Positions 2,980 to 51,036 are shown, counted from the stretch's first letter. The stretch is 64,000 nt of DNA from an uncultured Acidobacteriota bacterium (GCA_963770895.1 CAVYRF010000001.1:1504001-1568000); one strand, 5' to 3'. Notes: generated by a model not told the origin, from the letters alone. Made by a program: numbers and translations.

Positions 2980-4291
2980 TTGCAGACAGATGAATCAAAG
3001 GTAGATCCGTGTCTGCTCGCTGGCGCGAGCTGCGCCTCCCACGGCCGTTCAACCGGGATTGTGCCCGAGCCCTGGCCCGCGCCTGTGGAGGGTGCCGTCC
3101 TGCTGGGCAACATTGCGGCCACGTTCCAGCGTTTCGTGGCGCTGCCACGGTTCGCCGAGGTGGCTGCCGCACTATGGACAGTCCACGCTCACGCGATCGA
3201 GGCTGCCGGGGCTTCGCCGCTACTGGCCCTTACGTCGCCAGAGAAGCGGTGCGGCAAGACGACGACGCTGGCGCTGCTCGCCCGCCTGGTGCCGCGAGCT
3301 CTGCTCAGCTCGAACATCACGGCGGCGTCGCTCTTCCGGGTGGTGGAGAAGTACTCGCCGACGCTGCTGGTCGACGAGGCGGACACCTTCCTGCGGGAGA
3401 AGGAGGAGCTGCGCGGCATCCTCAATTGCGGCCACACGCGGGATGCCGCATACGTGGTGCGCACGGTCGGGGACGAGCACGAGCCGCGCCGGTTCTCGAC
3501 CTGGGCTCCCAAGGCCGTGGCGATGATCGGACGGCTCCCCGACACGCTGGCAGGCCGGAGCATCGTGGTGCCGATGCGCCGCCGCGCTCCGGGCGAGCAG
3601 GTGGAGCGGCTGCGGCTCGACCGGCCGGGTGACTTCGAGGCGCTGCGGCGGCGAGCAGCGCGCTGGGCCGCCGATCACCTGGCCGAGCTGCGCGCGGCGG
3701 ACCCCGAGGTGCCGGCGGAGCTCGGGGACCGGGCCGCCGACAACTGGCGGCCGCTGCTGGCGATCGCCGACCTGGCCGGCGGCGAGTGGCCGCAGCGGGC
3801 ACGGCGGGCGGCCGTCGCGCTGGCGAACTGCACCGCCGAAGAGCGGGACAGCGTGCGCGAGGAGCTGCTCGCCGACATCCGGGAGGCGTTCCGCGGGTGC
3901 AGCGGGGACCGGATTTTCACTGAGGAGCTGCTGGCCGAGCTGCGCACGCGGGAGGAGCGGCCCTGGGGGGAGTGGCGGCATGGCCAGGCCATGTTGGCCG
4001 TGCAGCTGGCCCGGCAGCTCAAGCCGTTCGGCGTCCGGCCCCGGCTGTATCGCGACGGCGCGAAGTGCGCGCGGGGATACTCGGCCGACGACTTCGCGGA
4101 TGCGTTCGCCCGCTACCTCCCCGCGGAGTCGCCGCCGGCGTTACAGGTCAATGCCGATCAGGGCTTGGCTGCATCTTCTGAGCGTTACGTCACGGCTGCC
4201 GCAACAGGTCGAGCGAGCGGCGCAAGCGCAAGCAGGCGTTGTAACGGATGTAACGAGCCCAGCCCCCGAGGCTCGCTGGGAGAAGGTGTAA
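2980..4291 (+). pseudogene. DUF3631-family replication protein of a phage satellite/integrative element, probable 3' frameshift
   Basis: 'PEPWPAPV', 'SPEKRCGKTT' (P-loop), 'TLLVDEAD', 'LGDRAADNWRPLLAIAD', 'DAFARYL'. The main frame runs on into nonsense, while another frame ends '..VTDVT..WEKV*' at 4291, just before the next RBS/ATG. Confidence 0.75.
4139..4255. repeat. Convergent CGTTACA/TGTAACG repeat array (putative origin)
   Basis: CGTTACA 4139-4145, CGTTAC 4183-4188, TGTAACG 4240-4246 and 4249-4255. Confidence 0.55.
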
Positions 4292-4933: not shown

Positions 4934-7636
4934 TCAAGCCGCCGGCGTGGCGCCGGCCGCGGCTTCGGCGCCCGCCGGTGGTTGTTGGGCGCGCAGCGCA
5001 TCGACGCGTGCCGCGATGGCGGCCACCGTCGGCCGGGCGAAGAACTCGACCGCTGGGAAGCGAAGGTCGAACATCGCGCCGATGTTGGCGATCATCTGGG
5101 TCGCCATCAGCGAATGGCCGCCGAGGCGGAAGAAGTTGTCGTTGCGGCCCACTTCCTCGATTTTCAGGACCTCGGCGAACAGTCGGGCCACGGTGGCTTC
5201 GGTGGCGCTGAGCGGCGCCGCGGCCGCCGTGCCGGAGCCGCCGCCGCGCGCCGCCGCGGCTGGCGGGGCCGGCAGCGCGCCGCGGTCGATCTTGCCGTTC
5301 GGGTTGAGCGGCATTTCGTTCAGCCGCATGAACAGGTTGGGCACCATGTAGGGGGGCAGTTTCTGCTCCAGCAGTGCGCGCAGACGGTCTTCGAAGGTGT
5401 GCCGGTCTCCGGCTGCCGCCGTGGCTCCCTCCGGCGCGGTTGCCGCCGGGACGTAATAGGCGGTCAGCCGCATCTCGCCCGGCGCGGTCTCCGCCGCCAC
5501 CGCCACCGCCTCCTTCACGCCGGGGTCGGCGCGCAGAAGGGTTTCGATCTCGCCCAGTTCGATGCGCTGGCCGCGGATCTTCACCTGATGGTCGATGCGG
5601 CCGAGGAATTCCAGGTTGCCGTCCGGCAGGTAGCGAGCAAGGTCGCCGGTACGATACAGGCGTGCTCCCGGAGTGGCGGCAAAGGGGTCATCGACGAACT
5701 TTCGGGCAGTGAGGGCAGCGTCGTTGGCATAGCCCTGGCCGACGCCGTCGCCGGCCAGACAGATCTCGCCAGCGACGCCGATCGGCACCAGGTGCAGCCG
5801 CTCGTCCAGCACGTAGACCTTGCTGTTGTGAATCGGCCTGCCGATCGGCACCGAGGTACGGCTGTAGCGATCGAAGTCGATCAGCCGGTAGGCCGACGAC
5901 ACGTCGCTGCATTCGGCGGCGCCGTAGACGTTGACGATCTCGGCCGCGCGGCCTGGCGACGCCACCCAGCCCAGCAGGCGCGAGGCCGAGATCGCCTCGC
6001 CGCCCAGGAACAGACAGCGCAGCGATCGCAGGCTGGCGTGGCTGCCCGCCTCGGGCCCTTCGAGCAGCGGGTAGAAGGTGCTGGGGGCGCAGTTGAGCAG
6101 CGTGATCTCGGAGTTGCGCAGGGTGCGCAGCAGCAGCTCGGGGTCATACCCGTCCGGCACCAGGTGCAGCTCGCCCCCACGCGTCAGGGGCATGGCCATG
6201 CTGCGCTGGGTGAGGTCGAAGCTGATCGAGCTCATCAAGAGGTTCTTGTCGGCGGCCGAGATGGCGAAGTCGTGGCCGAACCACGACAGAAGGTTGGTCC
6301 AGCCGCGATGGTGGACCGCCGCGGCCTTGGGGCGGCCGGTCGAACCGGAGGTAAAGATGATGTAGCACAGATCTCCGGGCCCGCTGCGCCGCTCGGGTAG
6401 GTCGCCGGGACGCGCCGCCAGCGCGGCGGCGTCGCGGTCCACCAGGACCACGCGCGGTTTCCGGGCCGGCAGGCGATCGAGCAGCCGTTCGCTGGTGACC
6501 AGCGCCTTCAGCCTGACGCCCTCGAACATCACCGCCATGCGGTCGCTGGGATAGCTGGGATCGAAGGGCACGTAGGCGCCTCCCGCCTTGAGCACGGCCA
6601 GCACGGCCACCACCAGCGCGGGCGAGCGATTGAGGCAGATCCCGACCGGCGTGTTGGCGCCGGCGCCCAGGCTTTGCAGGTGATGGGCGAGCTGATTGGC
6701 GCGCCGGTCCAGCTCGCCGTAGCTGATCCGCAGCGGACCGTCCACCAGCGCAATGCGGTCGGGCGCCGCCGCCGCCTGCGCCGCGAACAGCTGATCCACA
6801 CAGACATCGCGCGGGTAGTTGTGCGCCGTGTCGTTCCAGTCGAAGAGCAGGCGCCGGCGCTCGCCTTCGTCGAGCATGCCGAGGTCGGCGAGAGCGGCGT
6901 TGGGGTCGCGCAGGCCGGCGTCGAGCAGCTGTGCCAGGTGGCACAACAAGCGTTCGACGGTGGCGGCCGCGAAGAGCAGCGGGCTGAAGGCGGCCCTGCC
7001 GCGCAGCCCATCGGGCACGCGCTCGAAGGTGATGGTCAGGTCGTTGCCGGTCGCCGGCAGCTCGCCGTGCAGGCCGCCGTGCACCAGCGCCACATCGAAC
7101 AGCGGGCAGCGGTCTGCCCCCGGTGGCAGGCCCAGGTCGCTCAGCAGCTGGGCGAACGGCACCTGCCGGTGGTCGTGCGCTTCGAGGAGAGCCTGGCGTA
7201 CGCGCAGGAGGGTCTGGCGGAAGCTCGCCTGCTCGTCGATCTCGCTGACCAGGACCAGGACGCTGTCCGCCGTGTCGTCCGCCGGGTTGCCGGTAGTGCG
7301 CACCGCCGCACAGCCGATGGCGATGGGCGACGCCTGGGTGTAGCGGTGCAGGCAGACGGCGAGCGTTGCCGCCAGCGCCACATGCTCGAGGAATGGCTCG
7401 CCGCCGGTCAGCTGGGAGAGACGGTCGAACAGCTGACCGCCCAGGACGATCTCCACGGAGGCGTTGTGGTCGAGCCGCCCGGCGGGGCGGCGATGGTCGG
7501 CGGGAGGACCCGCCGGACGCGGTCGAACCGCCAGCTTGTCGCGCCAGTAGCGGCGGCTTGCGGCGGCCGGGTCCTCGTCCGCGGCAACCGGCGGGGCGGC
7601 GCCGGCGGCCGCGGCGGTTTCGCTCACAGTGCTCAT
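4934..7636 (-). CDS. Stand-alone NRPS: half-C (interface-like) domain - A - T
   Basis: Starts at 'RYWRDKL' (C-terminal lobe only, no HHxxxDG). A motifs YIIFTSGSTGRPK, RTGDL and NGKID; T motif GGHSL. Hand-read code DLRNFGVDVK. RBS GGAGGG. Confidence 0.9.
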   Translation of the reverse strand: MSTVSETAAAAGAAPPVAADEDPAAASRRYWRDKLAVRPRPAGPPADHRRPAGRLDHNASVEIVLGGQLFDRLSQLTGGEPFLEHVALAATLAVCLHRYTQASPIAIGCAAVRTTGNPADDTADSVLVLVSEIDEQASFRQTLLRVRQALLEAHDHRQVPFAQLLSDLGLPPGADRCPLFDVALVHGGLHGELPATGNDLTITFERVPDGLRGRAAFSPLLFAAATVERLLCHLAQLLDAGLRDPNAALADLGMLDEGERRRLLFDWNDTAHNYPRDVCVDQLFAAQAAAAPDRIALVDGPLRISYGELDRRANQLAHHLQSLGAGANTPVGICLNRSPALVVAVLAVLKAGGAYVPFDPSYPSDRMAVMFEGVRLKALVTSERLLDRLPARKPRVVLVDRDAAALAARPGDLPERRSGPGDLCYIIFTSGSTGRPKAAAVHHRGWTNLLSWFGHDFAISAADKNLLMSSISFDLTQRSMAMPLTRGGELHLVPDGYDPELLLRTLRNSEITLLNCAPSTFYPLLEGPEAGSHASLRSLRCLFLGGEAISASRLLGWVASPGRAAEIVNVYGAAECSDVSSAYRLIDFDRYSRTSVPIGRPIHNSKVYVLDERLHLVPIGVAGEICLAGDGVGQGYANDAALTARKFVDDPFAATPGARLYRTGDLARYLPDGNLEFLGRIDHQVKIRGQRIELGEIETLLRADPGVKEAVAVAAETAPGEMRLTAYYVPAATAPEGATAAAGDRHTFEDRLRALLEQKLPPYMVPNLFMRLNEMPLNPNGKIDRGALPAPPAAAARGGGSGTAAAAPLSATEATVARLFAEVLKIEEVGRNDNFFRLGGHSLMATQMIANIGAMFDLRFPAVEFFARPTVAAIAARVDALRAQQPPAGAEAAAGATPAA

Positions 7637-7699
7637 TTCGCTCGCCCTCCAGGTCGCTCAGGTCGCTCAGGTCGCCGCGAAGCGCCGTGGTGTCCGCCC

Positions 7700-10216
7700 T
7701 CAAAAGTTGAACTGCAGGTTGGCAAGCGGCCGCCCGGTCGCGCTCTCGCGATCTGCCGTGGTGGCGATCGGCACGTCGCCCAGCAGGATGCCCGGCTCGC
7801 GCGCGGCCGCCGCCAGGACCGCCAGCAGCGCCTGGCCGAGCGCATCGCCGCCGTGGGGCGCCGCGTCGCCGCGCTCCAGGATGCGCAGCAGCAGGCCGCC
7901 GGCGCACTCCTGTACCCGCAGGATCAGCTCGACGTCCCGATAGGCCGGTACGGCGAAGCGCTCAGGCCCGTCCGCACCGCCCTCGCCATCCTGCAAAGTG
8001 AAGAGGCCCGGCGCCTCCGGCGGCGGCGGCGGGACCTCGACGTAACCGACCGCAAACACTGGACGCGCCTTCAGCGCGCCGGGGATCCGCAGGGTGGCGC
8101 CGAATAGGCTGGCGGCGAAGCGGCGGTGGGGCGCGGCGGCCTCCAGCCTGGCGCGCACCGCATGCGCCAGCTCGCGAAAGGCGGTGCGCTCGCTCGCCGC
8201 CAGGCGCACGGGGAACGGCTGCCCGCCGTCGCTCGCCACGATCACCGCCAGGTCGGTACGGCCGTCGAGCCGCAGCAGCGCGGCGGCGAGCGCGGCGAGC
8301 AGCAGGCTGCCCCGCTCGACACCGCAGCCGCGTGCCAGCGCATCCAGACGCGGCCGTGCCAGGTCGAGCGGCGAGCCCGAGCTCCAGGAGGCGTCCACTT
8401 CGTCCGGCCCGGCCGCCGCCATGGTGCCGCCGCGCCCTACCGAGAGCGGCGTGGCGAACTCGTCGCGCCAGTAGCGTTCGGCCTGGCGGAACGTCTCCGC
8501 GGACAGCGGCTGTCCCTGGTCGTGCGCCCCCGCCGCCCGGTCCCCCTCGGCCGCCGGGCGGTCGAACTGGCAGGAGCGGCGCAGCGCTTCGATGAGGAGC
8601 GGCGAGCCTTCGCCGCGCACCGGCTGCAGCACCTGTTCGCGCACCACCGCGTTCCAGCTGCCGAGGAAGGTATCGATCTGGTCGAACGACATGCCGCGGT
8701 TCTGCAGCAGGAACAGCGACACGAAGTTGAAGCCCGGATCGGGCACCCACTGTGGCCGATCGAAGCGGAAGAAGCAGCTTTCCACCAGATCGCAGGCGGT
8801 GCTCACGTCCATGGTGTCGTGCGACCAGGAGAAGTGATAGCCGCGGATGCCGTAGCGATCGCGCTCGTTCCAGATGGGCGTCACCGGGTCGCAGTACCAG
8901 ATCAGCGGGCGGTAGAAGTCGGGTCTGGTCTCCTCCAGGAAGTCGATGGTTTCCAGGGCGCTGGCGTAGGTTTCGCCGGGGAAGCCGAAGAAGAGGGACG
9001 CGAAGACCTTGATCCCCGCCGCCTTGAAAAGCGGAATGACCGAGAGGTAGTGCCGCTTGCGCGGCGTTTTGTGCATATTGACCAGCATCTGGTCGTTGGC
9101 CGATTCGAGGCCGAGGAACACCCCCTGGCAGCCGGCCTGCGCCATCAGCTGGACGAGCTCCTCGTCGCAGAAGTCGGCGCGGAAGAAGCAGTGCCAGCGA
9201 AAGCCGTAGCGCTGGCGGATCATCATGCGCATCATCTCTTTGAAGGTCTGCAGCGGCACGTTCGCCGTGTCGTCCACGAAGAACAGGCCGGTCACCGTGC
9301 CGACGTCGCGGATGGCGTTGAGCTCGCGCTCGATGTATTCGAGCTTCGAGACGTCGTACTTTTCGGTGCGCAGCGGAAACGAACAGAACGAGCAGGTGAA
9401 CGGACATCCTTTGGTGATGCGCACATTGACGTAGCTGCCCACCATGTCGGGCGGGAACAGCGAGTAGTCGATGAGGTTTTCGTACAGCGAGTTGAACTCG
9501 CGCTCGCTGGTGGTCAGCAGGAAGCGATCGCCCTGCCGATAGGCGATATTGGGGATGGCGGCGAAGTTGCGGTCTCCCTTGAGCGCCAGCAGGAGGCGCG
9601 CCAGCGCCTGCTCGCCCTCGCGGCTGCGCACGTAGAAGTCGGCGTCGATGTACCTGAACACCGCCTGCAGGTCGCTCTCCTCCATCGATTCGGAGCGCTT
9701 GGCGATGTAAGGTCCGCCCACCACGATGTGGGTGTCGGGGCTGTGCTCGCGCAAGAAGTTGACGACTTCCAGGATCGGTGCGTCGTAGTTGTAGATGGTG
9801 GTGGTGACCACCGCGGTCAGGTAGCGCCTGGTGCGCAGCTTTTCGCGCAGCTCGTCCTTTTGCAGTTGGAACAGGTTGATGTAGTCGAAGCTGAAGCCGC
9901 GCCGCGCCAGATAGGTCCCCAGGTACATCACCACCATCCACAGCACCTCGGTGTTGTGGAACTTGCGGCGAATGTCGAGCCCCGGCCGGCCCTCGAAGTG
10001 GAAGTGATCCAGGATGTCCATCGCCCGCCAGGGCCGGCCCTGGTACTGGATGTAGTTGAGGCTGAGGTCGCGATAGTCGGGATGGCCGGCGCCCATGGCG
10101 CGCATCATGTCGACTTCCTGCGCGAACTCGCTATCGTTGTAGCCGATGATGAGGCAGTCGGTGAGCATGGCTGGGGCTCCCACGGCGGATGGGACCTGCT
10201 GGCCCGAGGTTCCCAT
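7700..10216 (-). CDS. PhpK-like (B12-dependent class) radical SAM enzyme fused to a C-terminal half condensation domain
   Basis: 'DCLIIGYND' N-terminus, 'VVGGPYI', CxxxCxxC motif 'CPFTCSFC', 'FVDDTAN', 'GLESAN'. The C-terminal ~270 aa start 'AERYWRDEF' and resemble a C-lobe. Alternative start at 10168. Confidence 0.85.
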   Translation of the reverse strand: MGTSGQQVPSAVGAPAMLTDCLIIGYNDSEFAQEVDMMRAMGAGHPDYRDLSLNYIQYQGRPWRAMDILDHFHFEGRPGLDIRRKFHNTEVLWMVVMYLGTYLARRGFSFDYINLFQLQKDELREKLRTRRYLTAVVTTTIYNYDAPILEVVNFLREHSPDTHIVVGGPYIAKRSESMEESDLQAVFRYIDADFYVRSREGEQALARLLLALKGDRNFAAIPNIAYRQGDRFLLTTSEREFNSLYENLIDYSLFPPDMVGSYVNVRITKGCPFTCSFCSFPLRTEKYDVSKLEYIERELNAIRDVGTVTGLFFVDDTANVPLQTFKEMMRMMIRQRYGFRWHCFFRADFCDEELVQLMAQAGCQGVFLGLESANDQMLVNMHKTPRKRHYLSVIPLFKAAGIKVFASLFFGFPGETYASALETIDFLEETRPDFYRPLIWYCDPVTPIWNERDRYGIRGYHFSWSHDTMDVSTACDLVESCFFRFDRPQWVPDPGFNFVSLFLLQNRGMSFDQIDTFLGSWNAVVREQVLQPVRGEGSPLLIEALRRSCQFDRPAAEGDRAAGAHDQGQPLSAETFRQAERYWRDEFATPLSVGRGGTMAAAGPDEVDASWSSGSPLDLARPRLDALARGCGVERGSLLLAALAAALLRLDGRTDLAVIVASDGGQPFPVRLAASERTAFRELAHAVRARLEAAAPHRRFAASLFGATLRIPGALKARPVFAVGYVEVPPPPPEAPGLFTLQDGEGGADGPERFAVPAYRDVELILRVQECAGGLLLRILERGDAAPHGGDALGQALLAVLAAAAREPGILLGDVPIATTADRESATGRPLANLQFNF

Positions 10217-10250
10217 GTATAAGTGCAACCCGCAGTGCGCCGGCCGCCGG

Positions 10251-11177
10251 TCAGACCTTGCGCGCCACGATCTGGAACGAGTCCGTCGGATTCACGCATT
10301 CGCCCGGCGTCGGCGTGCGATGGAATGTCGTTTTGCCGAAACCGTCGAACAGCCGCGCGATCTCCTCCTCGCCGCTCAGCATGTGTCGGGTGTGGACGCT
10401 GGCGAACTGGCGGAACAGCTCGAGCAGGCTGTCGCGGCCGCCGTCCGGGTGCTGCGGGAAGTGGTCGCCGTGCCCGGCCAGCAGCCGCTCGGCGCGCTCG
10501 GCATAGCCGCTGCGCAGCTCGGGGGTGGTGGCGCCGCCGATCATCGCGGTGGTGACCAGGGTGCCGCCCGGCTTGAGCAGCTCCCGCCAGCGCTTGACGA
10601 TCGTCGGCTTGTCCGCCGCCTTGATGACGGTCAGGAACTCGTCGGTGACGATGAGGTCGTAGGCGCCCAGCGGCAGGTCATCGGTGAGCAGGTTGGCGCG
10701 GGCACACTCGACCTGGAAGCCATGCCGGTCGGCATACCATTGGCAGGCGCGCAGCGGGGTGCGACAGATATCGTAGATCTCGATCCGTGGGGCGGCGTCC
10801 ACCTCGACCATCGCGGCGTACAGGGTGGCCAGCATGCCGTAGTCCGCCGCCGCCGAGATCAGCACCCGGCTGTGCGGGGCGCGGCGCAGCACCGCCGTGA
10901 GCGCCTCCTGGTAGAACTCGTACCAGGGTGGCGTCGCCACCATGTTGAGCAGGCGCAGGTACTGCCACGTGCCGTGATACCAGCTGCAGCTGATGTCCGG
11001 CAGGGCCTTGGCTTCCTGGTGTGTCTTGGCCCACTCTTCCATCCCGCCGGTCTCCTTGGCGCCGCAGTGCTGGGCTGCCCACGCCTCCATCAGCGGGGCC
11101 GATTCGATCAAGAGCTCGCGGTTGAACGGATCCAGCTCGTACAGGCGGATGGCAGGAGCGGTGGCTGTCGATGGCAT
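10251..11177 (-). CDS. Class I SAM-dependent methyltransferase-fold enzyme (degenerate motif I)
   Basis: GGAGG RBS before the ATG at 11177. 'RVLISAAAD', 'IYDIC', 'YDLIVTD', 'LLKPGGTLV'; N-terminal 'CSWYHGTWQYLRLL'. Confidence 0.75.
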   Translation of the reverse strand: MPSTATAPAIRLYELDPFNRELLIESAPLMEAWAAQHCGAKETGGMEEWAKTHQEAKALPDISCSWYHGTWQYLRLLNMVATPPWYEFYQEALTAVLRRAPHSRVLISAAADYGMLATLYAAMVEVDAAPRIEIYDICRTPLRACQWYADRHGFQVECARANLLTDDLPLGAYDLIVTDEFLTVIKAADKPTIVKRWRELLKPGGTLVTTAMIGGATTPELRSGYAERAERLLAGHGDHFPQHPDGGRDSLLELFRQFASVHTRHMLSGEEEIARLFDGFGKTTFHRTPTPGECVNPTDSFQIVARKV

Positions 11178-11294
11178 TCGTCTGTCCTCCAAAGGGTTTC
11201 CATAGGGCAGCGGGCTATGGCGCCGGGGCTACGCTCTGCTCACGCCCCTCGCGCGATGCGAAACGCCAGCGTCGCGACAAAATACACCAGATAA

Positions 11295-11324
11295 TTGAAA
11301 ATTGGAATCTTCCAAAATTTTCAA
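11295..11324. promoter_or_regulatory. Inverted repeat in AT-rich divergent promoter region (putative operator)
   Basis: TTGAAAATT-N12-AATTTTCAA with inner GGAA-TC-TTCC, lying between the divergent genes starting at 11177 and 11438. Confidence 0.55.
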
Positions 11325-11437
11325 CCGGTACTACAATTAAACGCGCCGAAAGGGACTGCCTCGGTCCGCGTTCCACGCTCTGCGTCGCGCGCTCGAGGAA
11401 CCGCCCGACGGACCGCCCACGACCCCGAGGAGACCGC

Positions 11438-12199
11438 ATGGCGACAGCGCTCAACCCCGACGCCTTCGTCCGCAAGCAGGACCGGCCCCGAGCCCGCCTG
11501 CGCCTGTTCTGTTTCACCTTCGCGGCATCGAGCGCACAGCTGTTCCACGGCTGGAACGACCACGTTCCCGAATGGATCGAGGTGAGCGGCTGCGAGCTGC
11601 CGGGGCACGGCGGCCGCCTGGCGGAGACACCGGTCTCCAACCAGCACGAAGCGGCGATCGAGATCGCCGATATGTTGGAGCCGGCTATCGATCGCCCCTA
11701 CGCTCTCTTCGGCCACTGCCTGGGCGCCGCCCAGGCATACGAGGCGACCCGCCTGCTGCGCCAGCGCGGCAAAGCGCAGCCGGTGCGCCTGTTCAGCTCC
11801 GGCGCGCGGGGACCCCATCTGGGTATCCCCATCGCCGACGTCGAAAGCATGGACGACGACGTATTCATCGAGCACATGCATCAGGCGTATGCGGCGCCGA
11901 TCGCCTTTTTGCGCCACCCCGAGATGCGGCCGCTCTTCCTGCCCATGGTGCGTGCCGACGCCCGCATGACACAGAACTACCGCTACGTGTCCGGCCCGCC
12001 GGTCGACTACCCGGTGACCGCGGTGGCGGGCGAGACCGACCCCGACGTGCAGATGGAGCACCTGGTCGCTTGGCGCGACCACACCACGGCGCCGGTGACG
12101 GCGCGCATCTACCCCGGGAACCATTTCTTCTTCATCGACAGCGCGCCGCAGCTGCTCGCCGATTTCGCTCGCGAGCTCGCGGCGAGCCTGCCCGGCTGA
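11438..12199 (+). CDS. Type II thioesterase-family protein with Cys nucleophile (GHCLG)
   Basis: GAGGAG RBS. 'RLFCF', 'ELPGHGGRL', 'ALFGHCLG' (11711-11725), 'PGNHFF'. Confidence 0.9.
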   Translation: MATALNPDAFVRKQDRPRARLRLFCFTFAASSAQLFHGWNDHVPEWIEVSGCELPGHGGRLAETPVSNQHEAAIEIADMLEPAIDRPYALFGHCLGAAQAYEATRLLRQRGKAQPVRLFSSGARGPHLGIPIADVESMDDDVFIEHMHQAYAAPIAFLRHPEMRPLFLPMVRADARMTQNYRYVSGPPVDYPVTAVAGETDPDVQMEHLVAWRDHTTAPVTARIYPGNHFFFIDSAPQLLADFARELAASLPG

Positions 12200-12214
12200 C
12201 CGGAAACCTTGCCG

Positions 12215-12682
12215 ATGACGACCGGCCAGAGCCTGCAAGATCTCTACGCCCCCGCCGATCACTGCTTTGGCTGCGGGCCGGCCAACGAGCACGGCCTGCG
12301 CATCAAGAGCTATGTGGACGGCGACGAAGTGGTGGCCGAATGGACCCCCGATCGCCGTCATGAAGCGTTCGACGGCGTGGTCAACGGTGGCGTCATCGGT
12401 GCCCTGTTCGACTGCCACAGCAACTGGACGGCCGCCTGGCATCTGATGCTGCGCCACGGCGGCAGCGAGCCGCCCTGCACGGTCACCGCCGACTACCAGG
12501 TGCATCTGGTGTGGCCCACCTCGTCGCGCGGCCCGCTGCGGTTGCGCGCCTGGGTGGTGGAGTCGCAAGACGAGAGCGCCGTGGTCGAGGCCAGCCTGGA
12601 GGCGGCGGGCCGCACCACCGCCTACTGCCGTGGCACCTTTGTCGCCGTCCGGGAGGGCCATCCCGCCTTTCACCGGCGGTAG
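12215..12682 (+). CDS. PaaI-family hotdog-fold thioesterase
   Basis: 'HCFGCGPANEHGL', 'GVVNGGVIGALFDCH', 'VTADYQV'. Confidence 0.8.
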   Translation: MTTGQSLQDLYAPADHCFGCGPANEHGLRIKSYVDGDEVVAEWTPDRRHEAFDGVVNGGVIGALFDCHSNWTAAWHLMLRHGGSEPPCTVTADYQVHLVWPTSSRGPLRLRAWVVESQDESAVVEASLEAAGRTTAYCRGTFVAVREGHPAFHRR

Positions 12683-12757
12683 GAGCCCCGTGTCCGAGCC
12701 GGCCGACCGCCCCGCCCGCCCCGTGACGGAAGGCGCACCCGGGTCCGGAGTGTGCCG

Positions 12758-14086
12758 ATGAAGAGCCGCGGTATGGCAGCGTTCCTCGCCGTCTGGGCGG
12801 GGCAGGTGGTTTCCTCTCTGGGAACCGGTCTTAGCGGGTTCGCCCTCGGGGTATGGGTATACCAGCGGACGGGCTCGGCGACACGGTTCGCCCTCATTAC
12901 CTTGGTGACGACGCTGCCCGGCATTTTCCTGACACCGATCGCGGGCGCGCTGGTGGACCGCTGGGACCGTCGCCGGGCGATGATCCTGAGCAACGCGGGC
13001 GCGGGGTGCACCACCCTGATCCTCGCGCTCCTGTTCTGGTACGGCCGGCTGGAGCTCTGGCACATCTACCTCCTCCTGGCTCTCGGCTCGGCGTTCGGCA
13101 CCCTTCAGTGGCCGGCCTTTTCCGCGGCAACGACCCTGCTCGTCCCCAAGGAGCACCTCGGGCGCGCCGCCGGCCTGACGCAGGCGGGGGCAGCGGTCTC
13201 CGTGATCCTGGCCCCGGTGCTCGCCGGCGTTCTGGTAGTGAGGATCGGGCTCCAAGGGGTCGTGCTCGTCGACTGCGCGACCTTCGTCGTAGCGCTGGCT
13301 ACTCTCCTGTGCGTCCATGTGCCGCGCGCCGAGGTCACGGCGGAGGGACTGGCGACCCGGGGCTCCCTGCTGCGCGAGGCCGCATCGGGATGGTCGTACA
13401 TCCGCCAGCGGCCGGGCCTCCTGTCGCTGCTGGGTCTGAGCGCCGCGAGCAACTTCAGTGTGGGGATGATGCAGGTCCTGGTGACTCCGATGATCCTCTC
13501 CTTCACCTCGGCCGCCGTGCTGGGCCGCGTGATGTCGGTGGCCGGGGTCGGCATGCTCGCGGGCAGTCTACTGATCAGTGTGTGGGGCGGGCCCTCGCGG
13601 CGGGTTTTGGGCATCCTCGGCTTCATGATGCTCCAGGGCGCCATCCTCTTGGCTGGAGGGCTGTGGCCCAGCGCGATACTCATTGCCGCGGCGGGGTTCG
13701 TGTTCCTGTTCACCGTGCCGATCATCCTCGGCTGCAGCCAGGCCATCTGGCAGTCCAAGGTCGCGCCGGACCTGCAGGGACGGGTGTTCGCGGTGCGCAG
13801 GATGGTGGCCTGGTCGACCCTGCCGCTGAGCTACCTCATCACCGGGCCTCTGACGGACCGCGTCTTCGAGCCGCTGCTCGCGGTGAACGGCCCTCTCGCG
13901 GGCAGCGTCGGACGGCTCATCGGAGTGGGGAAGGGGCGTGGGAGCGCCCTTCTCCTCATCCTCCTCGGGGTACTCGTCATGGTGACGGCCGCGGCGTTCT
14001 CCCGGTACTCCCGGCTGCGGCAGCTCGAGTCGGAGCTGCCGGACGTACTACCGGAAACGTGGCTGGAACCGGCGTCGCAGACATAA
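12758..14086 (+). CDS. MFS transporter (NRPS-associated exporter)
   Basis: About 12 hydrophobic segments; motif A 'GALVDRWDRRRAM'; 'WQSKVAPDLQGRVF'. Confidence 0.9.
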   Translation: MKSRGMAAFLAVWAGQVVSSLGTGLSGFALGVWVYQRTGSATRFALITLVTTLPGIFLTPIAGALVDRWDRRRAMILSNAGAGCTTLILALLFWYGRLELWHIYLLLALGSAFGTLQWPAFSAATTLLVPKEHLGRAAGLTQAGAAVSVILAPVLAGVLVVRIGLQGVVLVDCATFVVALATLLCVHVPRAEVTAEGLATRGSLLREAASGWSYIRQRPGLLSLLGLSAASNFSVGMMQVLVTPMILSFTSAAVLGRVMSVAGVGMLAGSLLISVWGGPSRRVLGILGFMMLQGAILLAGGLWPSAILIAAAGFVFLFTVPIILGCSQAIWQSKVAPDLQGRVFAVRRMVAWSTLPLSYLITGPLTDRVFEPLLAVNGPLAGSVGRLIGVGKGRGSALLLILLGVLVMVTAAAFSRYSRLRQLESELPDVLPETWLEPASQT

Positions 14087-14427: not shown

Positions 14428-17400
14428 GTGACCGGGCGGCTCAAGGACCTGATCATTCTGCGCGGACGCAACTACTACCCGCAGGATATCGAGCGCACGG
14501 CCGCGCGGGTCCACCCGGCCCTGCGGCCGGACGGCGGAGCGGCCTTTTCGATCGAGCGCGAGGGCACAGCGCGCCTGGTGGTGGCGCAGGAGGTCGAGCA
14601 CGGCCGTGCGGATGTGCCGGATATGGCAGCTCTCGCCGAGGAGGTCCGGCGGATGGTTGCCGACGAGCTCGAGGTCGCGGTCGACGAGGTCGTGCTCCTG
14701 CGTAGCGGGACCCTCCCCAAGACCACCAGCGGCAAGGTCCGGCGCCAGGCTTGCCGGGAGGAGTACCTCGCGGGGAGGCTTTCCGTCGCCGGGCGCAGCG
14801 GGCTCGCCGCCGGCCGGGATCTGCCGGAAGACACCCCCACCAGCTTTGGCGATCTCGGGACGCTCGATCCGGCTGCCATCCGGGCGCTCGTCGCCGCGGA
14901 GGCCGCGCGCGTCCTCGGTCTCGACCCCGGAAGGCTGATGCCGGACCGTCCCCTCGCCGCGCTCGGACTGGACTCGCTGGCCGCTGTCGAGCTCAAGGCG
15001 GGACTGGAAGAGAAATCCGGTGTCTCCTTGTCGCTCACCCGGCTGCTCTCCGGGGCGAGCCTGGCGTCCGTCGCGGCGGAGGTGCTGGCGGGATCGGCGG
15101 TGCCGCGCCAGGTGCCGGAGTTGGAGATCGGGGCTCCTCTCGGCGACCATCCCCTCTCGGCAGGGCAGGAGGCTCTCTGGTTCTCCGACCGGCTGGCTCC
15201 GGAGGCCGCCGCTTACAATGTGGCGACGGCCGTCCACGTCGAGGGGGGGCTCGACCCGGAAGCCCTGGGGCGCTCCCTCCAGGCTCTGGCCGACCGCCAT
15301 CCGGCCCTGCGGACCACTTTCTTCTCTCAGCTCGGCGAGCCGCGCCAGATCGTTCACGAGCGCCTCGCCGTGGATTTCCGCGTCGAGCCATCGGGGTCGA
15401 AGGGGGCGGAGATCCCGCTCGTGGCCGAGGCCTACCGCCCATTCGATCTCGAAAACGAGTCTCTTCTACGGGTCCGGGTCTGGCCTCTGGAGGGTGGCGG
15501 CTGGCTTTTGCTCCTCGTCGTACACCATCTGGTGACCGATTTCTGGTCGCTCGGCCTCTTCGTCCGGGAGCTTGCAGCGCTCTATGGCGAGGCGACCGGC
15601 CAGGGACCGGCGCGGCTCGCACCCCTGCCGCTCGGCTACACCGACTACGTCCGCTGGCAGGGCAATCTTCTTGCCGGGGAGCAAGGTGAGCGGCTCTGGG
15701 AGCACTGGCGCCAACAGCTCTCGGGAGATCTTCCCGTGCTTGAGCTGGTGACGGACCGTCCCCGTCCCGCCGTCCAGACATATATCGGCCTCTCCCGCGG
15801 CCTGCGCCTCGCGCCCGAGCTTGCGGACCGGCTGCGGGCGCTCAGTCTGGCTTCGGGAACGACGCTCTTCGTCACTCTTCTGGCCGGGTTCCAGGCTCTC
15901 CTTGGCCGTTGCACCGGACAGGATGAGGTCGTGATCGGCTCCCCCACGGTGGGCCGGGGCGCCGCGCCCTTCCTGGGGGTGATGGGCTACTTCGTCAACC
16001 CGGTGGCGCTCCGCCTCTCCAGCGCCGGCGATCCTGCCTGGCGCGATCTCCTTTCGTTCGCCAAGGCGGTTTGTCTCGCCGCATTCGAGCACCGGGATCT
16101 CCCCTTTGCCACCTTGGCCGAGCGGCTCCATCCCGAGCGAGACCCCAGCCGTTCCCCGGTTTTCCAGACACTCTTCGCGCTCCAGAAGGCGCAGCGGCCG
16201 GAGGAGAGGGGCCTGGCGGAACTCGCCGCCGGAATAGAGAGGGCTCGGGCCACTCTGTCGGATCTCGAGCTCGTTGCCGTCCCCCTCGAGGAGTGCCGCT
16301 CTCCCTTCGACCTCACGTTGACGGCCGCCGATGCCGAGGCGGGCCTCCCGATCGTCCTGCAAGTCAACCGCGACCTCTTCGATCCCGCTACGGCGGAACG
16401 CCTTCTGCGTGCTCTCGAAAATCTGCTGTACGCCCTGGCTGAGGATCTCGATGCCCGAGTCTCCGCGGCCGAGATGCTCGGGGACGCGGAGCGCCGGCAA
16501 TGCGAGGCCTGGAGCCGCACCACGGTCGAGCTGCCGCGCGGCCTCTGCCTGCCGGACCTCTTCGCCGCGCAGGCGGAGCGCACTCCGGGGCGAGAGGCCC
16601 TCGTCGCCGGCAGTGAGCGTCTCACCTACCGAGAGCTGAGCCGTCGGGTGGAGATCCTGGCGCGGAGGCTTCGCGTCCTCGGCGTCGGACCGGAGAGCCG
16701 GGTCGGGGTTTCCGTCGGCCGATCCGCCGATCTCGTCGTCGCGCTTCTCGCGGTCTTGCGGGCAGGCGGCGCCTACGTGCCGCTCGACCCCGTTCAGCCC
16801 GCCGAGCGGCTCGCCTGGATGCTGCAGGACTCCGGGGCGGAGGTGTTGCTCGTCGAGGAGCGCCTCGCTCCAGGCCTGCTGGCAGCCGGGGTGCCCGCAC
16901 GCTGCCGAATCGTCTTGCTCGACCGCGGCGCGCACCGCAGCAGAGCCCAGCGGGGGATCCAGGGACGGCAAGATCCCATACTGCCCGGAAATCTCGCCTA
17001 CCTGATCTATACCTCGGGATCGACGGGACGGCCGAAGGGAGTGGCGATCGAGCACCGGAGCGCGGTGACGCTCGTACAGTGGGCGCGGCAGGTCTTCACG
17101 GACGCCGAGCTGTCCGGGGTCCTCGCCGCCACCTCGATCGGCTTCGACCTCTCGGTCTTCGAGCTCTTCGTACCTCTTTGCTGGGGTGGCCGGGTGATCC
17201 TGGCCGAGAATGCCCTGGCCCTCCCCGGACTGCCCGCGGCGGGCGAGGTGCGGCTGGTCAACACCGTGCCTTCGGTCCTCGCCGAGCTGGTCCGTGGGGA
17301 GGACGGGCTGGAGCTGCCGGGCTCGGTCACCACGATCAACCTGGCCGGAGAGCCCCTGCCGCGCTCCCTGGTGCGGGCCATCCACGAGAAACACCCGGCG

Positions 17401-20400
17401 GCGCGGGTGCTCAACCTCTACGGCCCTTCCGAGGACACCACCTACTCGACGTTCGCCGTGGTCTCGCCGGACGGAGAGCTGCCGCCGGCCATCGGCCGGC
17501 CGATCGCCAACACCCAGGCCCATGTGCTGGACCGCGGCAGACGCCAGGTGCCGGCCGGCGTGCCAGGCGAGCTCCATCTCGGCGGAGAGGGTCTGGCGCG
17601 CGGCTACCACGGGCGGCCGGATCTCACGGCGGAGCGGTTCGTGCCGGACCCGTTCGCGACGGGAGCGCGGCTCTACAGGACCGGGGACCTGGCCCGCTGG
17701 CGGCCGGACAGGGAGCTCGAGTTCCTCGGCCGCATCGATCATCAGGTGAAGATCCGCGGCGTCCGCATCGAGCCGGCGGAAGTGGAATCGGCGCTGCTCT
17801 CGCGGCCGGGAGTGCGCGAGGCGGTGGTCCTGCCGCAGGGGGAGGGTAGCGACCGGCGCCTCATCGCCTATGTCGTCGCCGAGACCGGTGCGGAGCTGGA
17901 CGAGGGCGCCCTCCGCGAGTCGCTCCTCGGGCTCCTGCCGCGGGCCATGGTGCCCGCGGCGATCGTGCCAGTTCCCGGGCTGCCGCTCACTCCGAACGGC
18001 AAGCTGGACCGCCGCGTCCTGGCGCGGCTCGCCCCGGAGCCATCGGCAGGTGGAGGAGGGGAGCCCGCGGCGCCGCGCTCGCCGGTGGAGGAGCTGCTCG
18101 CCGGCATCTGGACGGAGGTCCTCGGGGTCGAGCGGGTAGGGGCGGGAGACGACTTCTTCGCGCTCGGCGGGCATTCCCTTCTCGCTCCGCGCGTCCAGGC
18201 ACGGGTGCGCGAACGGCTCGGCGCCGAGCTGCCGCTCTCCGTGTTCTTTCAGCATCGCACGCTGGCGGAGCAGGCGCGGCGGCTCGCCGTCCGCAAGGTG
18301 GACGACCGCCCTCCACTTCGTCCGTCGCCGCGGGAGCGGACCGTTTTTCCTCTCTCCTTCGCTCAGGAACGCGTCTGGTTCCTCGAGCGGCTCGAGCCGG
18401 GCACAGCGGTCTATCACATGGCCGGCAGCACCCGCCTGACCGGCCCACTCGATCTCGCGGCGTTACGCCGCGCGCTTTGCGAGCTCGAGCGGCGGCACGA
18501 CGCCCTCCGCGCCCGGTTCCGGGAAGTAGACGAGATCCCGGTCCAGGAGATCGCCCCTGGGGGGCTGGACGGTCCGGAGTTGCCGGTCGTGTGCCTCGGG
18601 GGGTTGGAACCGGCGGCGCAGGAAGCCGAGGCGGAGCGTCTCACCAGAGACGAAGCCCAGCGCCCCTTCGATCTGGAGAACGGGCCGCCGTGGCGGCTCC
18701 TTCTCCTGCGCAAAGATTCCTGCCTTCACGAGCTCCTCATCACTCTGCACCACATCGCCGCCGATGAGGAATCGCTGGTGATCCTGGCGCGGGAGCTGGC
18801 CGCGCTCTATGCCGCCTTCCACAAAGGAAGGCCTCCCAGGTTGCCGGAGTTGCCGCTGCGCTCCGTTGACTTTGCCCTGTGGCAGAGGGAAGGGCTGGTT
18901 GGCGAGGTGCTGGAGAAGCGGCTCGCCTGGTGGCGGGAACGCCTGGCCGATCTCCCCATCATCGAGGTGGCGGCCGACCGTCCTCGTCCTGAGGCGCGGA
19001 GCTCCCGTGGGGATGTGGTCACCACCGTTTTGTCGCCGGCCCTCGCCGATGCCCTCGCTGCTCTGGGCCGCCGGGAGGGCGTCACGTTGTTCATGGTGCT
19101 CCTCGCCGGCTTCCAGGTCATCCTGGAGCGGATCTCTGGCGAGCCTGAGGTGCCGGTCGGCTGTCCGGTCTCCAACCGCGACCGCGAGCCGATCCTCCCG
19201 GTGATCGGTTTCCTGGTCAACACCCTGGTCCTCCGAGCGAGCAGCACAGCGGCCCCAAGCTTCGGCGGATTCCTGCGGCGGGTGCGGGAAGTCACCGTCG
19301 AGACCTTCGAGCATGGTGATGTCCCGTTCGAGCTGCTGGTCCAAGCACTCCAGCCGGAACGGGCTCTCGGCCGCAACCCACTCTTCGAGGTGGCTTTCGC
19401 GCTCCAGCGGCCACCCCATGGCTGGCAGGTCGACGATCTCGCCTTCGCGCCTCGGATCGTGCCGACCAGGACGGCCAAGTTCGCCCTCACCCTGTTCGCC
19501 ATCGCAGAGGAGGGGAAGCTCTCGCTTCTCCTCGAGTACGCGACGGACCTCTTCGACCGGCCGACCCCGGCGCGCCTGCTGGGTTACCTCGAAACGCTGC
19601 TCGCCGTGGCGGCCGCGGAGCCTGCGCGCCCTCTCGCCCTGCTCCCCTTGTTCGCTCCGGCGGAGCAGCAGGAGCTGATCCATCATCCGGAAGCACGGCT
19701 CTTTCGCAAGGTGGCGAGGGCGCGCGTCCCGGAGAGTCGCGGGGAGAATGGGCCGCGCGTCCTGGCCGCTCCGCGGACTCCCACCGAGGAGCGGCTGGTC
19801 GAGATCTGGGCCGGTGTGCTGGAACGCAGGCAGGTGTCGATCCACGACGACTTCTTCAGCCTCGGTGGCCATTCGCTCCTGGCCTCTCGGGTCGTGGCAC
19901 GGATTCGCAAATCCCTGGGCGTCGACCTGCCGCTCTCGATCCTCTTCACCTGTCCGACCATCGCGCGACTGGCCGGCGAGGTCGACCGCGCGCGCCGCGC
20001 TGCCGATGCGGGCGTGACGGAGGTAGAGCCGGTGGCGGCACCCCTCACCTTCCGCTGGGAGGACGGCTCCGCCCCACCGCTTTCCTTTGCTCAGGAGCAG
20101 CTCTGGTTCATTGACCAGCTGGAGCCGGGGAGCCCGGTTTACAACCTCTCCACCGCCGTATGCCTCGATGGGGCTCTCGACCGGAATGCCCTGCGCAGGG
20201 CTCTGGTCCAGGTCGTCGAGCGCCACTCGGTCCTCCGCACGACCTTGCGCGCCTTCGAGGGGCGACCGGTCCAGGTCGTGGCGCCGCATTTCCTCCCCGT
20301 CCTGCACGAGATCGATCTCCTGGATCTCGCTCCCGGAGTGCGGCAGGACGAGGCGGCGCGCCATGTGGCGGCCGGGGCGCTCGCCCCCTTCGACCTTGCC

Positions 20401-22107: not shown

Positions 22108-22122
22108 AGCAGGAGCTGATCC

Positions 22123-49601: not shown

Positions 49602-49807
49602 CGGTTCGCCTCGAGGTGAACGTCAAGAGAGCCTGCGTCCGGGCGGCGCGTTCCTCGCCAGGTCTGCGAGGTGACGCAGGCGGGCAGCTGAAGCCTTGCT
49701 ACGGCTCCAGGTGGGTGACATGGAGCACGGTCCGAGCGAAACCAACGGCGCCGCGAGGCCGCCTGCAACGGTGGGTGGTCCTTGGCTAACATAGGGCTCC
49801 TCCGCCC

Positions 49808-50469
49808 ATGTGGATGCTCCCGCCCAACGCCAACCGCCTGCCGCGCAGCGGCGAAAGCGCGACAGAACTTTGGCTGCGAGCGCGACCGCTGGCGGGGACG
49901 GCGGCGGAGGCGTATCTCGAACGGCGGCGGGTGGCGCTGGCGGTGGCAGCGGCGGCTGAGGTGCGCTACACGGACGACTTGAACGGACGCCCGGCGGTGC
50001 TGGGCCGGCTGGTGGGGCCGCAGGGCGAGTTGCGGGCGGTGCACGGACGGCACCTCGAGGTGCGGCGAGGCGAGGGGAAGATGTTCACGGTGGGCGAGGC
50101 GGGCGGGGTGTTCGTGACGCTCGATGGCCTTGCCGCGGCGCCGCTGGTGTTGGTCGAAGGGATGTTCGATGCGCTTTCGGTCGGCGGCGGTGGCCTGGCG
50201 TGCGTGGCGACGATCGGGCGCTGGGTGGATTGGCTGCCGGCGGCGGCGCGCGGGCGGGAGGTGTGGCTGGCTTTCGACGCCAACCGGCCGGGGGAGCGGT
50301 CGGCGCGGGAGTTCGCGGCGGCACTGGCGGCGGCGGGAGCGGACTGCCGGCGGCTGCGGCCGCCGAGCGGTCACGGTGACTGGAACGCCGAGGCGCGGCG
50401 CCACGGCGCGGCGAGCCTGGCGCGGTGGCTGGAGCGACATGCTGCCGGCTCACTCGAGGAGGTGCGGTG

Positions 50470-50470
<1 letters not shown>
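49808..50470 (+). CDS. TOPRIM-domain (primase-like) protein, likely N-terminally truncated
   Basis: '[13 protein letters not shown]', '[11 protein letters not shown]', 'VWLAFDAN..G', 'RLRPP...GDWN'. Confidence 0.7.

Positions 50471-51036
<566 letters not shown>

Follow-up and report, generated by a model that had tools for sequence, protein, structure and literature searches.

Amino acids derived from S-adenosylmethionine (SAM), such as azetidine-2-carboxylate (Aze), 1-aminocyclopropane-1-carboxylate (ACC), and their methylated forms, are rare and sought-after building blocks, and to our knowledge only a handful of enzyme families have been shown to produce them. The azetidine synthases AzeJ and VioH, the latter working with the radical SAM enzyme VioG, have a class I methyltransferase fold with a non-canonical glycine motif and use SAM as a building block, with release of 5'-methylthioadenosine (MTA), as described in PMC11794875 and PMC12930334. 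In the Orf29/Orf30 and BnvC/Orf5 systems, which provide methyl-ACC and cis-methylazetidine-2-carboxylate (cis-MeAze), a radical SAM enzyme that depends on cobalamin methylates SAM at C4'', and a pyridoxal phosphate (PLP)-dependent or a DUF364 cyclase then converts the product, giving a methylated four-carbon residue for an NRPS (non-ribosomal peptide synthetase). Here we describe a cassette of three genes in a stretch of DNA of 64,000 nucleotides from an uncultured Acidobacteriota bacterium (GCA_963770895.1, CAVYRF010000001.1:1504001-1568000), the whole of which is called the window below. The cassette encodes a stand-alone NRPS protein with an adenylation (A) and a thiolation (T) domain, a radical SAM enzyme (rSAM) that depends on cobalamin, and a protein with a class I methyltransferase fold, here called MTL. 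As in the AzeJ/VioH systems, MTL is linked to NRPS A domains and has a cobalamin-dependent rSAM as an optional partner, and it would likewise consume SAM and release MTA. MTL is most likely a functional parallel of AzeJ and VioH that lies outside their family and uses SAM as a building block.

The three genes, recognized by reading frame and by high G+C content at third codon positions, are all on the minus strand and fill positions 4934-11177 of the window, whose G+C content is about 70%. The MTL gene (10251-11177) encodes 308 residues, and the protein is a candidate SAM aminobutyryl (3-amino-3-carboxypropyl) lyase or transferase. The rSAM gene (7700-10228) encodes 842 residues when read from a TTG codon at 10228, with ATG codons at 10216 and 10168 as further candidates for its uncertain start. 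The gene of the A-T protein (4934-7636) encodes 900 residues comprising a half-condensation domain, an A domain, and a T domain.

The first-pass annotation of this DNA had noted that the SAM-fold enzyme has SAAAD where GxGxG would be expected, and had compared it with VioH/AzeJ-type enzymes. The first of these statements holds, since the segment VLISAAADYGM of MTL aligns with motif I of the O-methyltransferase BelI, VLDLGAGTG. In this alignment, SAAADYG replaces GxGxG, the loop residues G-A-G-T-G of BelI correspond to A-A-A-D-Y, and the preceding Asp corresponds to Ile, while D136 (the ribose Asp) and N162 (at the adenine position) are kept and match Asp residues of BelI. The remodelled motif I positions, D136, and N162 are invariant in 17 aligned members of the family, as are many aromatic residues of the N-terminal lid. 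Because D136 and N162 are kept and motif I is replaced, MTL can probably still bind the adenosine part of SAM, and the site for the methionine part appears to have been rebuilt. The same 17 members share the invariant motifs GGMEEWAK, WYHGTWQYLRLL, TPGECVNPT (with Leu for Pro in one member), CxWYH(G/S)TWQxLRLL, LISA(A/C)AD(Y/F/W)GM, DICxTPL, and (L/I)IVTDEFL, as well as four invariant cysteines.

A single search yielded 389 MTL homologues at E <= 0.001, the best 120 of which are 56-100% identical to MTL, and across phyla the family is 50-77% identical. Most members belong to Acidobacteriota, Thermoanaerobaculia, and Eremiobacterota, and others were found in an actinomycete (Microbispora), a cyanobacterium, Rhizobium, Nitrospirota, and Bacillota. 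Judged by its sequence, MTL is a member of a large, tightly conserved, and uncharacterised family, for which a literature search found no paper. Longer or fused forms, namely a tandem duplicate (P0126), an apparently frame-shifted protein (P0127), and distant fusions, were not informative.

All scores of MTL against Pfam methyltransferase profiles are below threshold (Methyltransf_25, 25.7-25.8 bits against 27; Methyltransf_12, 23.4 against 30; Methyltransf_11, 20.1 against 21.2). In a search of the PDB, the closest solved relatives by sequence were phosphoethanolamine N-methyltransferases (5wp5, 1.2e-7) and the O-methyltransferases CysG and BelI. A model of MTL made with AlphaFold2 (AF2) has a pLDDT of 85, and its best 50 matches in the Foldseek and VIA comparison are all class I methyltransferases with flat Z-scores of 19.8-17.3, a list in which AzeJ and VioH do not appear; the fold comparison thus did not tell the families apart. 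A search of the ESM Atlas returned generic methyltransferase clusters alone. The AzeJ/VioH entries (8RYD-8RYG) were matched neither by phmmer at E <= 1 nor by a profile of the 17 sequences at E <= 10, both run against all PDB chains. PMC11794875 describes FY, PFNxxGN, and RxxYYxxC as signature motifs of Aze synthases, and states that AzeJ also deviates from GxGxG, with a GxxxG motif. The three signatures (17-FY-18, 133-PFNxxGN-139, and 172-RxxYYxxC-179) are absent from MTL and are not conserved in the family alignment; a chance PFN at MTL residues 17-19 lacks the G and the N and is unconserved. On the strength of the sequence searches and the missing signatures, membership of MTL in the AzeJ/VioH family was ruled out, and the earlier comparison with that type of enzyme is not borne out. 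Unlike AzeJ and VioH, to which it has no detectable sequence relation, MTL has about 308 residues and invariant motifs of its own.

To describe the genomic context of the family, 42 genome loci and 80 metagenome loci (numbered with the prefix L) were taken, and the proteins of the window and of the loci were mapped by tblastn. Close MTL homologues, defined as at least 46% identical, are present in 109 of these loci (29 genome, 80 metagenome), and 51 of the 109 form a well-flanked subset with at least 8 kb of total flank or 3 kb on each side. By feature map, some metagenome loci appear to repeat genome loci (for example, L050 and L005, L076 and L010), so that the counts given here are not counts of independent events. 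In 32 of the 51 well-flanked loci, and in 39 of all 109, there is an A domain that shares at least 44% identity with that of the window. The specificity codes over the 109 loci are DIRNFGVDVK (27), DLRNFGVDVK (5), DIRNIGVDVK (2), and DIRHIGVDVK (2), with three more cut by contig ends, so the code linked to MTL is near-invariant, D(I/L)R(N/H)(F/I)GVDVK; the remaining A domains in MTL loci have unrelated codes. An rSAM gene is present in 22 of the 51 well-flanked loci, and its presence or absence makes no difference to the A code. In every rSAM locus that has an A domain, this domain is fused to a T domain, whereas several loci without rSAM have a free A domain and a separate T domain.

Among the homologues that are 30-46% identical to MTL (L030-L042), the neighbouring genes are mixed, including VOC/glyoxalase-family proteins, a Cys/Met PLP enzyme, a proline racemase, and an ATP-grasp protein, and they do not point to a product. 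The distant relatives in L037, L041, and L042, all from actinomycetes, are 35-38% identical to MTL over the aligned part, keep WYHGTW, have (V/L)LVSGCADYS at motif I, and are each followed by a VOC/glyoxalase-family gene. A tandem pair of MTL genes was seen in L054 and L055 (9001-10800), and P0126, of 642 residues, corresponds to both copies joined.

The methionine-salvage pathway recycles MTA. Genes of this pathway lie near MTL in 16 of the 51 well-flanked loci and in 18 of the 109 overall, and they encode MTA phosphorylase (MTAP), MtnB, acireductone synthase (MtnC), and acireductone dioxygenase (ARD). Equivalog models of NCBIfam identify several of them with scores above cut-off. In L019, L022, and L024, the genes directly upstream of MTL encode MTA phosphorylase, with 309-311 bits on TIGR01694 (cut-off 274.85), and acireductone synthase, with 222-225 bits on TIGR01691 (cut-off 128.1). 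L009 has MtnB (TIGR03328, 197 bits against 137) plus acireductone synthase (TIGR01691), and L018 has an ARD-family protein (Pfam) plus acireductone synthase (TIGR01691). In L019, L092, and L101, MtnC/MTAP genes stand on one side of MTL and MtnB/ARD genes on the other, and overall the salvage genes around MTL occur in at least three distinct arrangements. Class II aldolases beside MTL in two rSAM loci (L010 and L013) score below the MtnB cut-off and were therefore not counted. The genome of the window carries TIGR01691 and TIGR01694 genes elsewhere. The presence of salvage genes beside MTL suggests that the by-product of MTL is MTA rather than S-adenosylhomocysteine (SAH), as would be expected for stoichiometric use of the aminobutyryl unit and not for methyl transfer.

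The specificity code of the A-T protein is DLRNFGVDVK, read both from the translation and by script, and it is identical to the code reported in the first-pass annotation. The homoserine (Hse) pattern DLKN(F/V)GSDVK that had been named there is in print (PMC7524897 and PMC12283262). The Hse code DLKNFGSDVK (PMC7524897) and the codes DLKNVGSDVK and DLKNLGTDVK for Hse or its lactone (PMC12283262) are identical to DLRNFGVDVK at 8, 7, and 7 of 10 positions, respectively, and the two Aze codes printed in section 11 of PMC12283262, DVQCLSEVTK and DMQLVSQQVK, at 2 and 3 of 10 by our own count. Positions N278 and D330 are shared between the MTL-linked code and the Hse codes. Given the match to the Hse codes and the low match to the Aze codes, the substrate of the A-T protein is, as far as the code tells, most likely a small homoserine-like residue. 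Positions 239 (Arg, where Hse codes have Lys) and 322 (Val, where they have Ser or Thr) differ in every family member, a reason for caution about plain homoserine as the substrate. No paper was found that contains the code DLRNFGVDVK or DIRNFGVDVK. Unlike in the AzeJ/VioH systems, the code of the partner A domain is thus homoserine-like and not proline-like, and the product of MTL looks homoserine-like rather than azetidine-like. The earlier proposal of chemistry on the aminobutyryl unit of SAM is consequently retained in part: the MTA-salvage neighbours, the remodelled SAM site, and the homoserine-like code speak for it, and the AzeJ/VioH type of enzyme is dropped from it. The half-condensation domains of rSAM and the A-T protein with their predicted docking, the Cys-type thioesterase-like protein, and the modules without A domain, all described below, had not been noticed in the first-pass annotation. 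ClbH-A2, the one A domain for which loading of SAM itself is known, has Ala in place of Asp235 and a hydrophobic-type code (PMC5490422); loading of SAM by the A domain described here was ruled out, as D235 is kept.

Residues 24-528 of rSAM match TIGR04479, 'PhpK family radical SAM P-methyltransferase', with 640.4 bits against a cut-off of 600. Pfam gives 76 bits for Radical_SAM and a weak match of 24.2 bits for B12-binding, below its cut-off of 32.1, and the cysteines C275, C279, and C282 of the CxxxCxxC motif are invariant in 11 aligned sequences. A second PhpK-family rSAM, which has no half-condensation tail, is encoded on the plus strand at 41785-43431 and scores 642 bits against TIGR04479, so both rSAMs of the window are above the cut-off of the family of the P-methyltransferases PhpK and BcpD. 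The second gene's start and the stop of the NRPS gene before it, the last of the line, overlap, and its product is about 38% identical to the first rSAM. PhpK, too, works on a substrate whose 2-amino-butanoate skeleton carries a gamma-substituent. Unlike in the PhpK/BcpD systems, the scanned proteins of the window include none of a phosphonate pathway, and the tail of the first rSAM lies outside the TIGR04479 model, which has 504 positions.

This tail comprises about 270 residues (approximately 570-842; 7703-8521, minus strand), and all 22 complete rSAM open reading frames (ORFs) of the survey have 236-301 residues past the core. It weakly resembles the C-terminal half of the Pfam Condensation profile (E 0.011 for the window, 1.6e-6 for L010, 5.2e-4 for L023, and none for L027), and the rSAM tails cover profile positions 185-274 or 296-448 only. 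The A-T protein likewise begins with a half-condensation domain (residues 1-270; 6827-7636, minus strand), in which residues 26-264 match profile positions 193-456 only, followed by AMP-binding, AMP-binding_C, and PP-binding. The tail and the half-condensation domain are not close copies of each other (BLASTP, E 0.007, weak). A catalytic condensation domain has both subdomains and the motif HHxxxDG; the N-terminal domain of the A-T protein and the rSAM tails lack this combination, and HHxxxDG itself is absent from that domain and from the rSAM tail of the window.

The rSAM protein ends with the residues ...PLANLQFNF (833-842; 7703-7732, minus strand), a putative docking peptide. A C-terminal motif (Q/E)F(N/A/T)F is shared by 16 of the 22 complete rSAM ORFs, with two residues beyond the motif in L021. 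The motif occurs in all 13 loci in which the A-T protein has a half-condensation domain, and the window also has both; in 11 of these 13 loci the A domain begins 739-893 nt past the rSAM stop, and in two it is off the contig. In the six loci without a half-condensation domain the motif is absent in every case, and the A domain lies 93-178 nt downstream or elsewhere. Three loci (L001, L043, and L098) have the motif and no partner on the sampled stretch. For the complex of rSAM residues 570-842 with residues 1-275 of the A-T protein, the predicted models gave ipSAE values of 0.64, 0.64, and 0.66, with 0.00 for the best control, a score that expresses the model's own confidence and for which alignments of our own were the input. 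Of 157 solved complexes, 116 attained this mark, compared with 2 of 215 mismatched pairs. The docking runs share at least 27% of contacts, the pLDDT of the partner is at least 78, and the confident contacts connect rSAM residues 833 and 835-842 with residues 75-87, 112, 140-154, and 245 of the half-condensation domain.

The complex model and the co-variation of the motif support docking of the rSAM C-terminal peptide on the half-condensation domain of the A-T protein; the half-condensation tail and this predicted docking set the MTL-linked rSAM apart from those of the AzeJ/VioH systems. The predicted docking, an A code that stays constant, and a T domain that is fused to A in every rSAM locus with an A domain together suggest that rSAM methylates its residue on the carrier protein. 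In this respect the cassette would differ from Orf29/Orf30 and BnvC/Orf5, where methylation of SAM comes first, and MTL is neither PLP-dependent nor a DUF364 protein. If the docking is true, it would represent a new way of recruiting a tailoring enzyme in trans, and it raises the testable question of whether cobalamin-dependent rSAM methylases act on carrier-bound amino acids.

Related operons combine MTL with other tailoring enzymes. The gene order T, halogenase, MTL, A was found in L011, L014, L015, L020, and L028, and L011 and L020 additionally carry a PLP decarboxylase. The L011 halogenase matches TIGR01762, 'chlorinating enzyme', with 423 bits against 226, gives 441 bits against SyrB2 (2fct), and has the His-x-Ala signature. 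A CmlA-type beta-hydroxylase is added in L026, L057, L081, and L082, and a haem-oxygenase-like plus cupin protein, which has the domain pair of SznF-type N-oxygenases, in L007, L010, L012, L076, and L118. KASIII-like proteins are encoded in 8 MTL loci and thioesterases in 22, and L019 has MTL and the A domain without any tailoring enzyme. The cassettes SyrB1/SyrB2/SyrC, CmaA-E/T, CytC1-4, and LgnA likewise have a stand-alone A(-T) protein, tailoring on the carrier, and transfer or release by a hydrolase-fold protein, and the SyrB2-type halogenases of the sister operons are shared with the SyrB cassette. Unlike in those cassettes, the tailoring enzyme of the window is a cobalamin-dependent rSAM recruited, as predicted, through a half-condensation domain, and the A domain is obligatorily paired with a further SAM-using enzyme.

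The operons with the order T, halogenase, MTL, A come from Eremiobacterota-type and alphaproteobacterial metagenome-assembled genomes. That of L011 is compact (8680-13965), with stand-alone T and A domains and the code DIRNFGVDVK. The haem-oxygenase-like and cupin parts are fused in one protein of about 400-420 residues, whose gene directly follows that of the A-T protein. In 17 of the 109 loci, including L006, L008, L019, L022, and L024 and spanning several phyla, a gene for a Na+/H+-exchanger-family transporter adjoins MTL.

We tentatively favour, with slightly less than half of our confidence, a scheme in which MTL makes a homoserine-like residue from the aminobutyryl unit of SAM, the docked rSAM methylates this residue, and a thioesterase-like protein with a Cys nucleophile shuttles it to modules that have no A domain. 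The cassette would thereby supply a building block to the adjacent hybrid line of NRPS and polyketide synthase (PKS) proteins. From the genomic context, MTL would take SAM's 3-amino-3-carboxypropyl part, release MTA, and give a four-carbon homoserine-like amino acid, in the simplest case homoserine by way of its lactone. The stand-alone A domain would then activate the four-carbon residue and load it onto its own T domain. With its ...LQFNF peptide held by the half-condensation domain of the A-T protein, as co-variation and the complex model suggest, rSAM would C-methylate the unit, most likely on the T domain. Finally, the Cys-type thioesterase-like protein would hand the residue to the C-T module, the C-Asub-T module, or the free-standing condensation (C) domain of the line. 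The phage SAM lyase Svi3-3 is not known to have a methyltransferase fold and serves in counter-defence, not in biosynthesis. Homoserine-lactone-forming SAM lyases of this kind, among which Svi3-3 is named in PMC11794875, give the products proposed for MTL, namely MTA and homoserine lactone or homoserine.

Several observations weigh against this proposal. Homoserine is a primary metabolite, and it would be strange to find a special, expensive pathway that makes it from SAM. Genuine Hse modules, for example that of laxaphycin, seem to do without an MTL-like partner, and in the paper on the laxaphycin cluster, which has such a module, the word 'methyltransferase' is absent from the main text (PMC7524897); the A domain described here is strictly coupled to MTL. 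The nearest solved relatives of MTL are genuine N- and O-methyltransferases, and a SyrB2-type halogenase, whose C-H chemistry is not easily reconciled with homoserine, adjoins MTL in operons without rSAM. As for MTA recycling, the window itself contains no methionine-salvage gene, just two of the 16 loci with salvage genes, L002 and L013, have rSAM as well, and the majority of salvage loci are of Terriglobia type and show some redundancy, L054 and L055, for example, having the same feature maps. The docking score carries the dependence on the model and its input alignments mentioned above. The order of steps is also at issue, since in every case studied (Orf29, BnvC, and VioG) methylation of free SAM by the cobalamin-dependent rSAM, either shown or proposed, comes ahead of cyclisation (PMC12930334 and PMC7277169).

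This last order could hold for the cassette as well, in that rSAM would first methylate free SAM at C4'', MTL would convert the methyl-SAM, and docking would only channel the product to the A domain. It is the only order shown for Orf29/Orf30 and BnvC/Orf5 in these two sources, which also support it for VioH. We keep it as a strong rival and nevertheless regard it as somewhat unlikely here, because the A code does not change with the presence of rSAM, because predicted docking and co-variation tie rSAM to the A-T protein and not to MTL, and because the T domain is fused to A wherever rSAM and an A domain occur together and is separate in several loci without rSAM. A different view of MTL itself is that of an ordinary methyltransferase acting on a homoserine-like amino acid, free or bound to the T domain, with SAH as by-product and, for example, O-methyl-homoserine as product, to which rSAM would add a second, C-linked methyl group. 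The class I fold, the weak Pfam methyltransferase matches, the relationship to phosphoethanolamine N-methyltransferases and to the CysG/BelI O-methyltransferases, and the conserved adenosine-binding positions are all in keeping with this view, and Val in place of Ser/Thr at position 322 would suit a less polar gamma-substituent. We judge it unlikely, as the three glycines of motif I and the preceding acidic residue are replaced in all 17 members and the neighbouring genes recycle MTA, not SAH; the O-methylated homoserine that the first-pass annotation had considered, if made by ordinary methyl transfer, thus fits the salvage neighbours poorly.

MTL could also have arrived at an azetidine route by convergence, cyclising SAM, or 4''-methyl-SAM made by rSAM, to Aze or MeAze with release of MTA, so that the A domain would load Aze or MeAze. 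The gene logic resembles that of cluster III of the AzeJ family, which combines a fold of the MT1 type with altered glycines, a B12-dependent rSAM, and NRPS parts (PMC11794875); MTA salvage would fit equally well, and in L038 a proline racemase gene adjoins a distant MTL homologue of 30% identity. This route seems quite unlikely to us in view of the absent sequence relation and signature motifs (FY, PFNxxGN, and RxxYYxxC), of a code that agrees with the two printed, proline-like Aze codes at 2-3 of 10 positions against 7-8 of 10 with the Hse codes, and of its constancy with and without rSAM. That MTL performs no SAM chemistry of its own, and is instead a SAM-binding scaffold or a cyclase acting on a T-bound residue, for example after halogenation, appears very improbable. 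Methyltransferase-fold proteins that transfer no methyl group are known (PMC10491745), SpnF is among the fold matches of MTL, and MTL is placed between halogenase and A domain in some operons, but MTL and the A domain also occur without a tailoring enzyme (L019), and the methionine-salvage neighbours would be left unexplained. We likewise consider it a far-fetched idea that MTL moves the aminobutyryl unit of SAM to a P, As, S, or Se nucleophile held by the four invariant cysteines, with methylation of the heteroatom by the PhpK-family rSAM and a phosphinothricin- or arsinothricin-like warhead residue in the NRPS peptide as the outcome. In a milder version, the half-condensation docking domain may recruit the cobalamin-dependent rSAM to C-methylate an aminoacyl-S-carrier.

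The analysis defines a further, uncharacterised methyltransferase-fold family, linked with an A-domain code of its own and with the recycling of MTA, and the locus is more interesting than a plain homoserine module. If MTL cleaves SAM as favoured above, the family would be a new entry in non-methylating SAM chemistry, and the combination of MTL with the code D(I/L)RNFGVDVK would serve as a handle for genome mining.

The remaining genes of the cluster are on the plus strand, beginning with that of the thioesterase-family protein (11438-12199), which is divergent from MTL. The protein scores 125 bits against Pfam Thioesterase and has the nucleophile motif GHCLG instead of GxSxG, with Cys for Ser. 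GHCLG is found in the window and in five of nine homologues (L001, L003, L005, L006, and L013), and GHS(M/V)G in the other four (L018, L019, L023, and L027). The aminoacyl-transferring proteins SyrC and CmaE use a Cys nucleophile. LgnA, of the type II thioesterase (TEII) type, transfers an aminoacyl group from one T domain to another, and the same source refers to CmaE-like shuttles (PMC8748450). A gene for a hotdog-fold (4HBT) thioesterase-like protein (12215-12682, plus strand; Pfam) follows and adjoins the Cys-type thioesterase in related loci too, and a gene for a major facilitator superfamily (MFS) transporter sits, on the same strand, between it and the first NRPS gene.

The first NRPS, N1 (14428-22107, plus strand), starts with the C-terminal subdomain of a fatty acyl-AMP ligase (FAAL) and an acyl carrier protein (ACP) only, and the FAAL ligase core was not seen in the window; C-A-T, C-T, and C-Asub-T modules follow, Asub being an A subdomain without the core. 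Next come a PKS module with ketosynthase (KS), acyltransferase (AT), ketoreductase (KR), and ACP domains (22120-26784, plus strand), a free-standing C domain of 483 residues with HHTVTDW and without an A or T domain of its own (26784-28235, plus strand), and the NRPS N2 with four C-A-T modules and a thioesterase (TE) domain (28232-41788, plus strand). The stop and start codons that flank the free-standing C domain overlap (TGATG and ATGA), which makes it a separate, translationally coupled gene. The other A codes of the line are DLFNNALTYK, DAQFIAQVVK, DALWLGGTFK, DFWHFGQ-IK, and DARSLSQMTK.

An A core is thus missing at three positions of the line (C-T and C-Asub-T, both in N1, and the free-standing C domain), and its only stand-alone A-T protein is that encoded at 4934-7636. 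In view of the three positions without A domain, and by analogy with the shuttles named above, an aminoacyl shuttle role of the Cys-type thioesterase-like protein is a reasonable inference. The stand-alone half-C-A-T protein may be a partner in trans of the free-standing C domain.

The flanks of the cluster contain a gene for a DUF3631 protein (2980-4200, plus strand) and Toprim/DUF7146 primase-like genes (49790-51036, plus strand), which hints at a mobile-element neighbourhood. Farther on, the segment 57465-63998, with a G+C content of 74-78%, encodes a Ser/Thr kinase with TPR repeats, a sigma-54 activator with an FHA domain, and, at the end of the window, a LanC-like protein.

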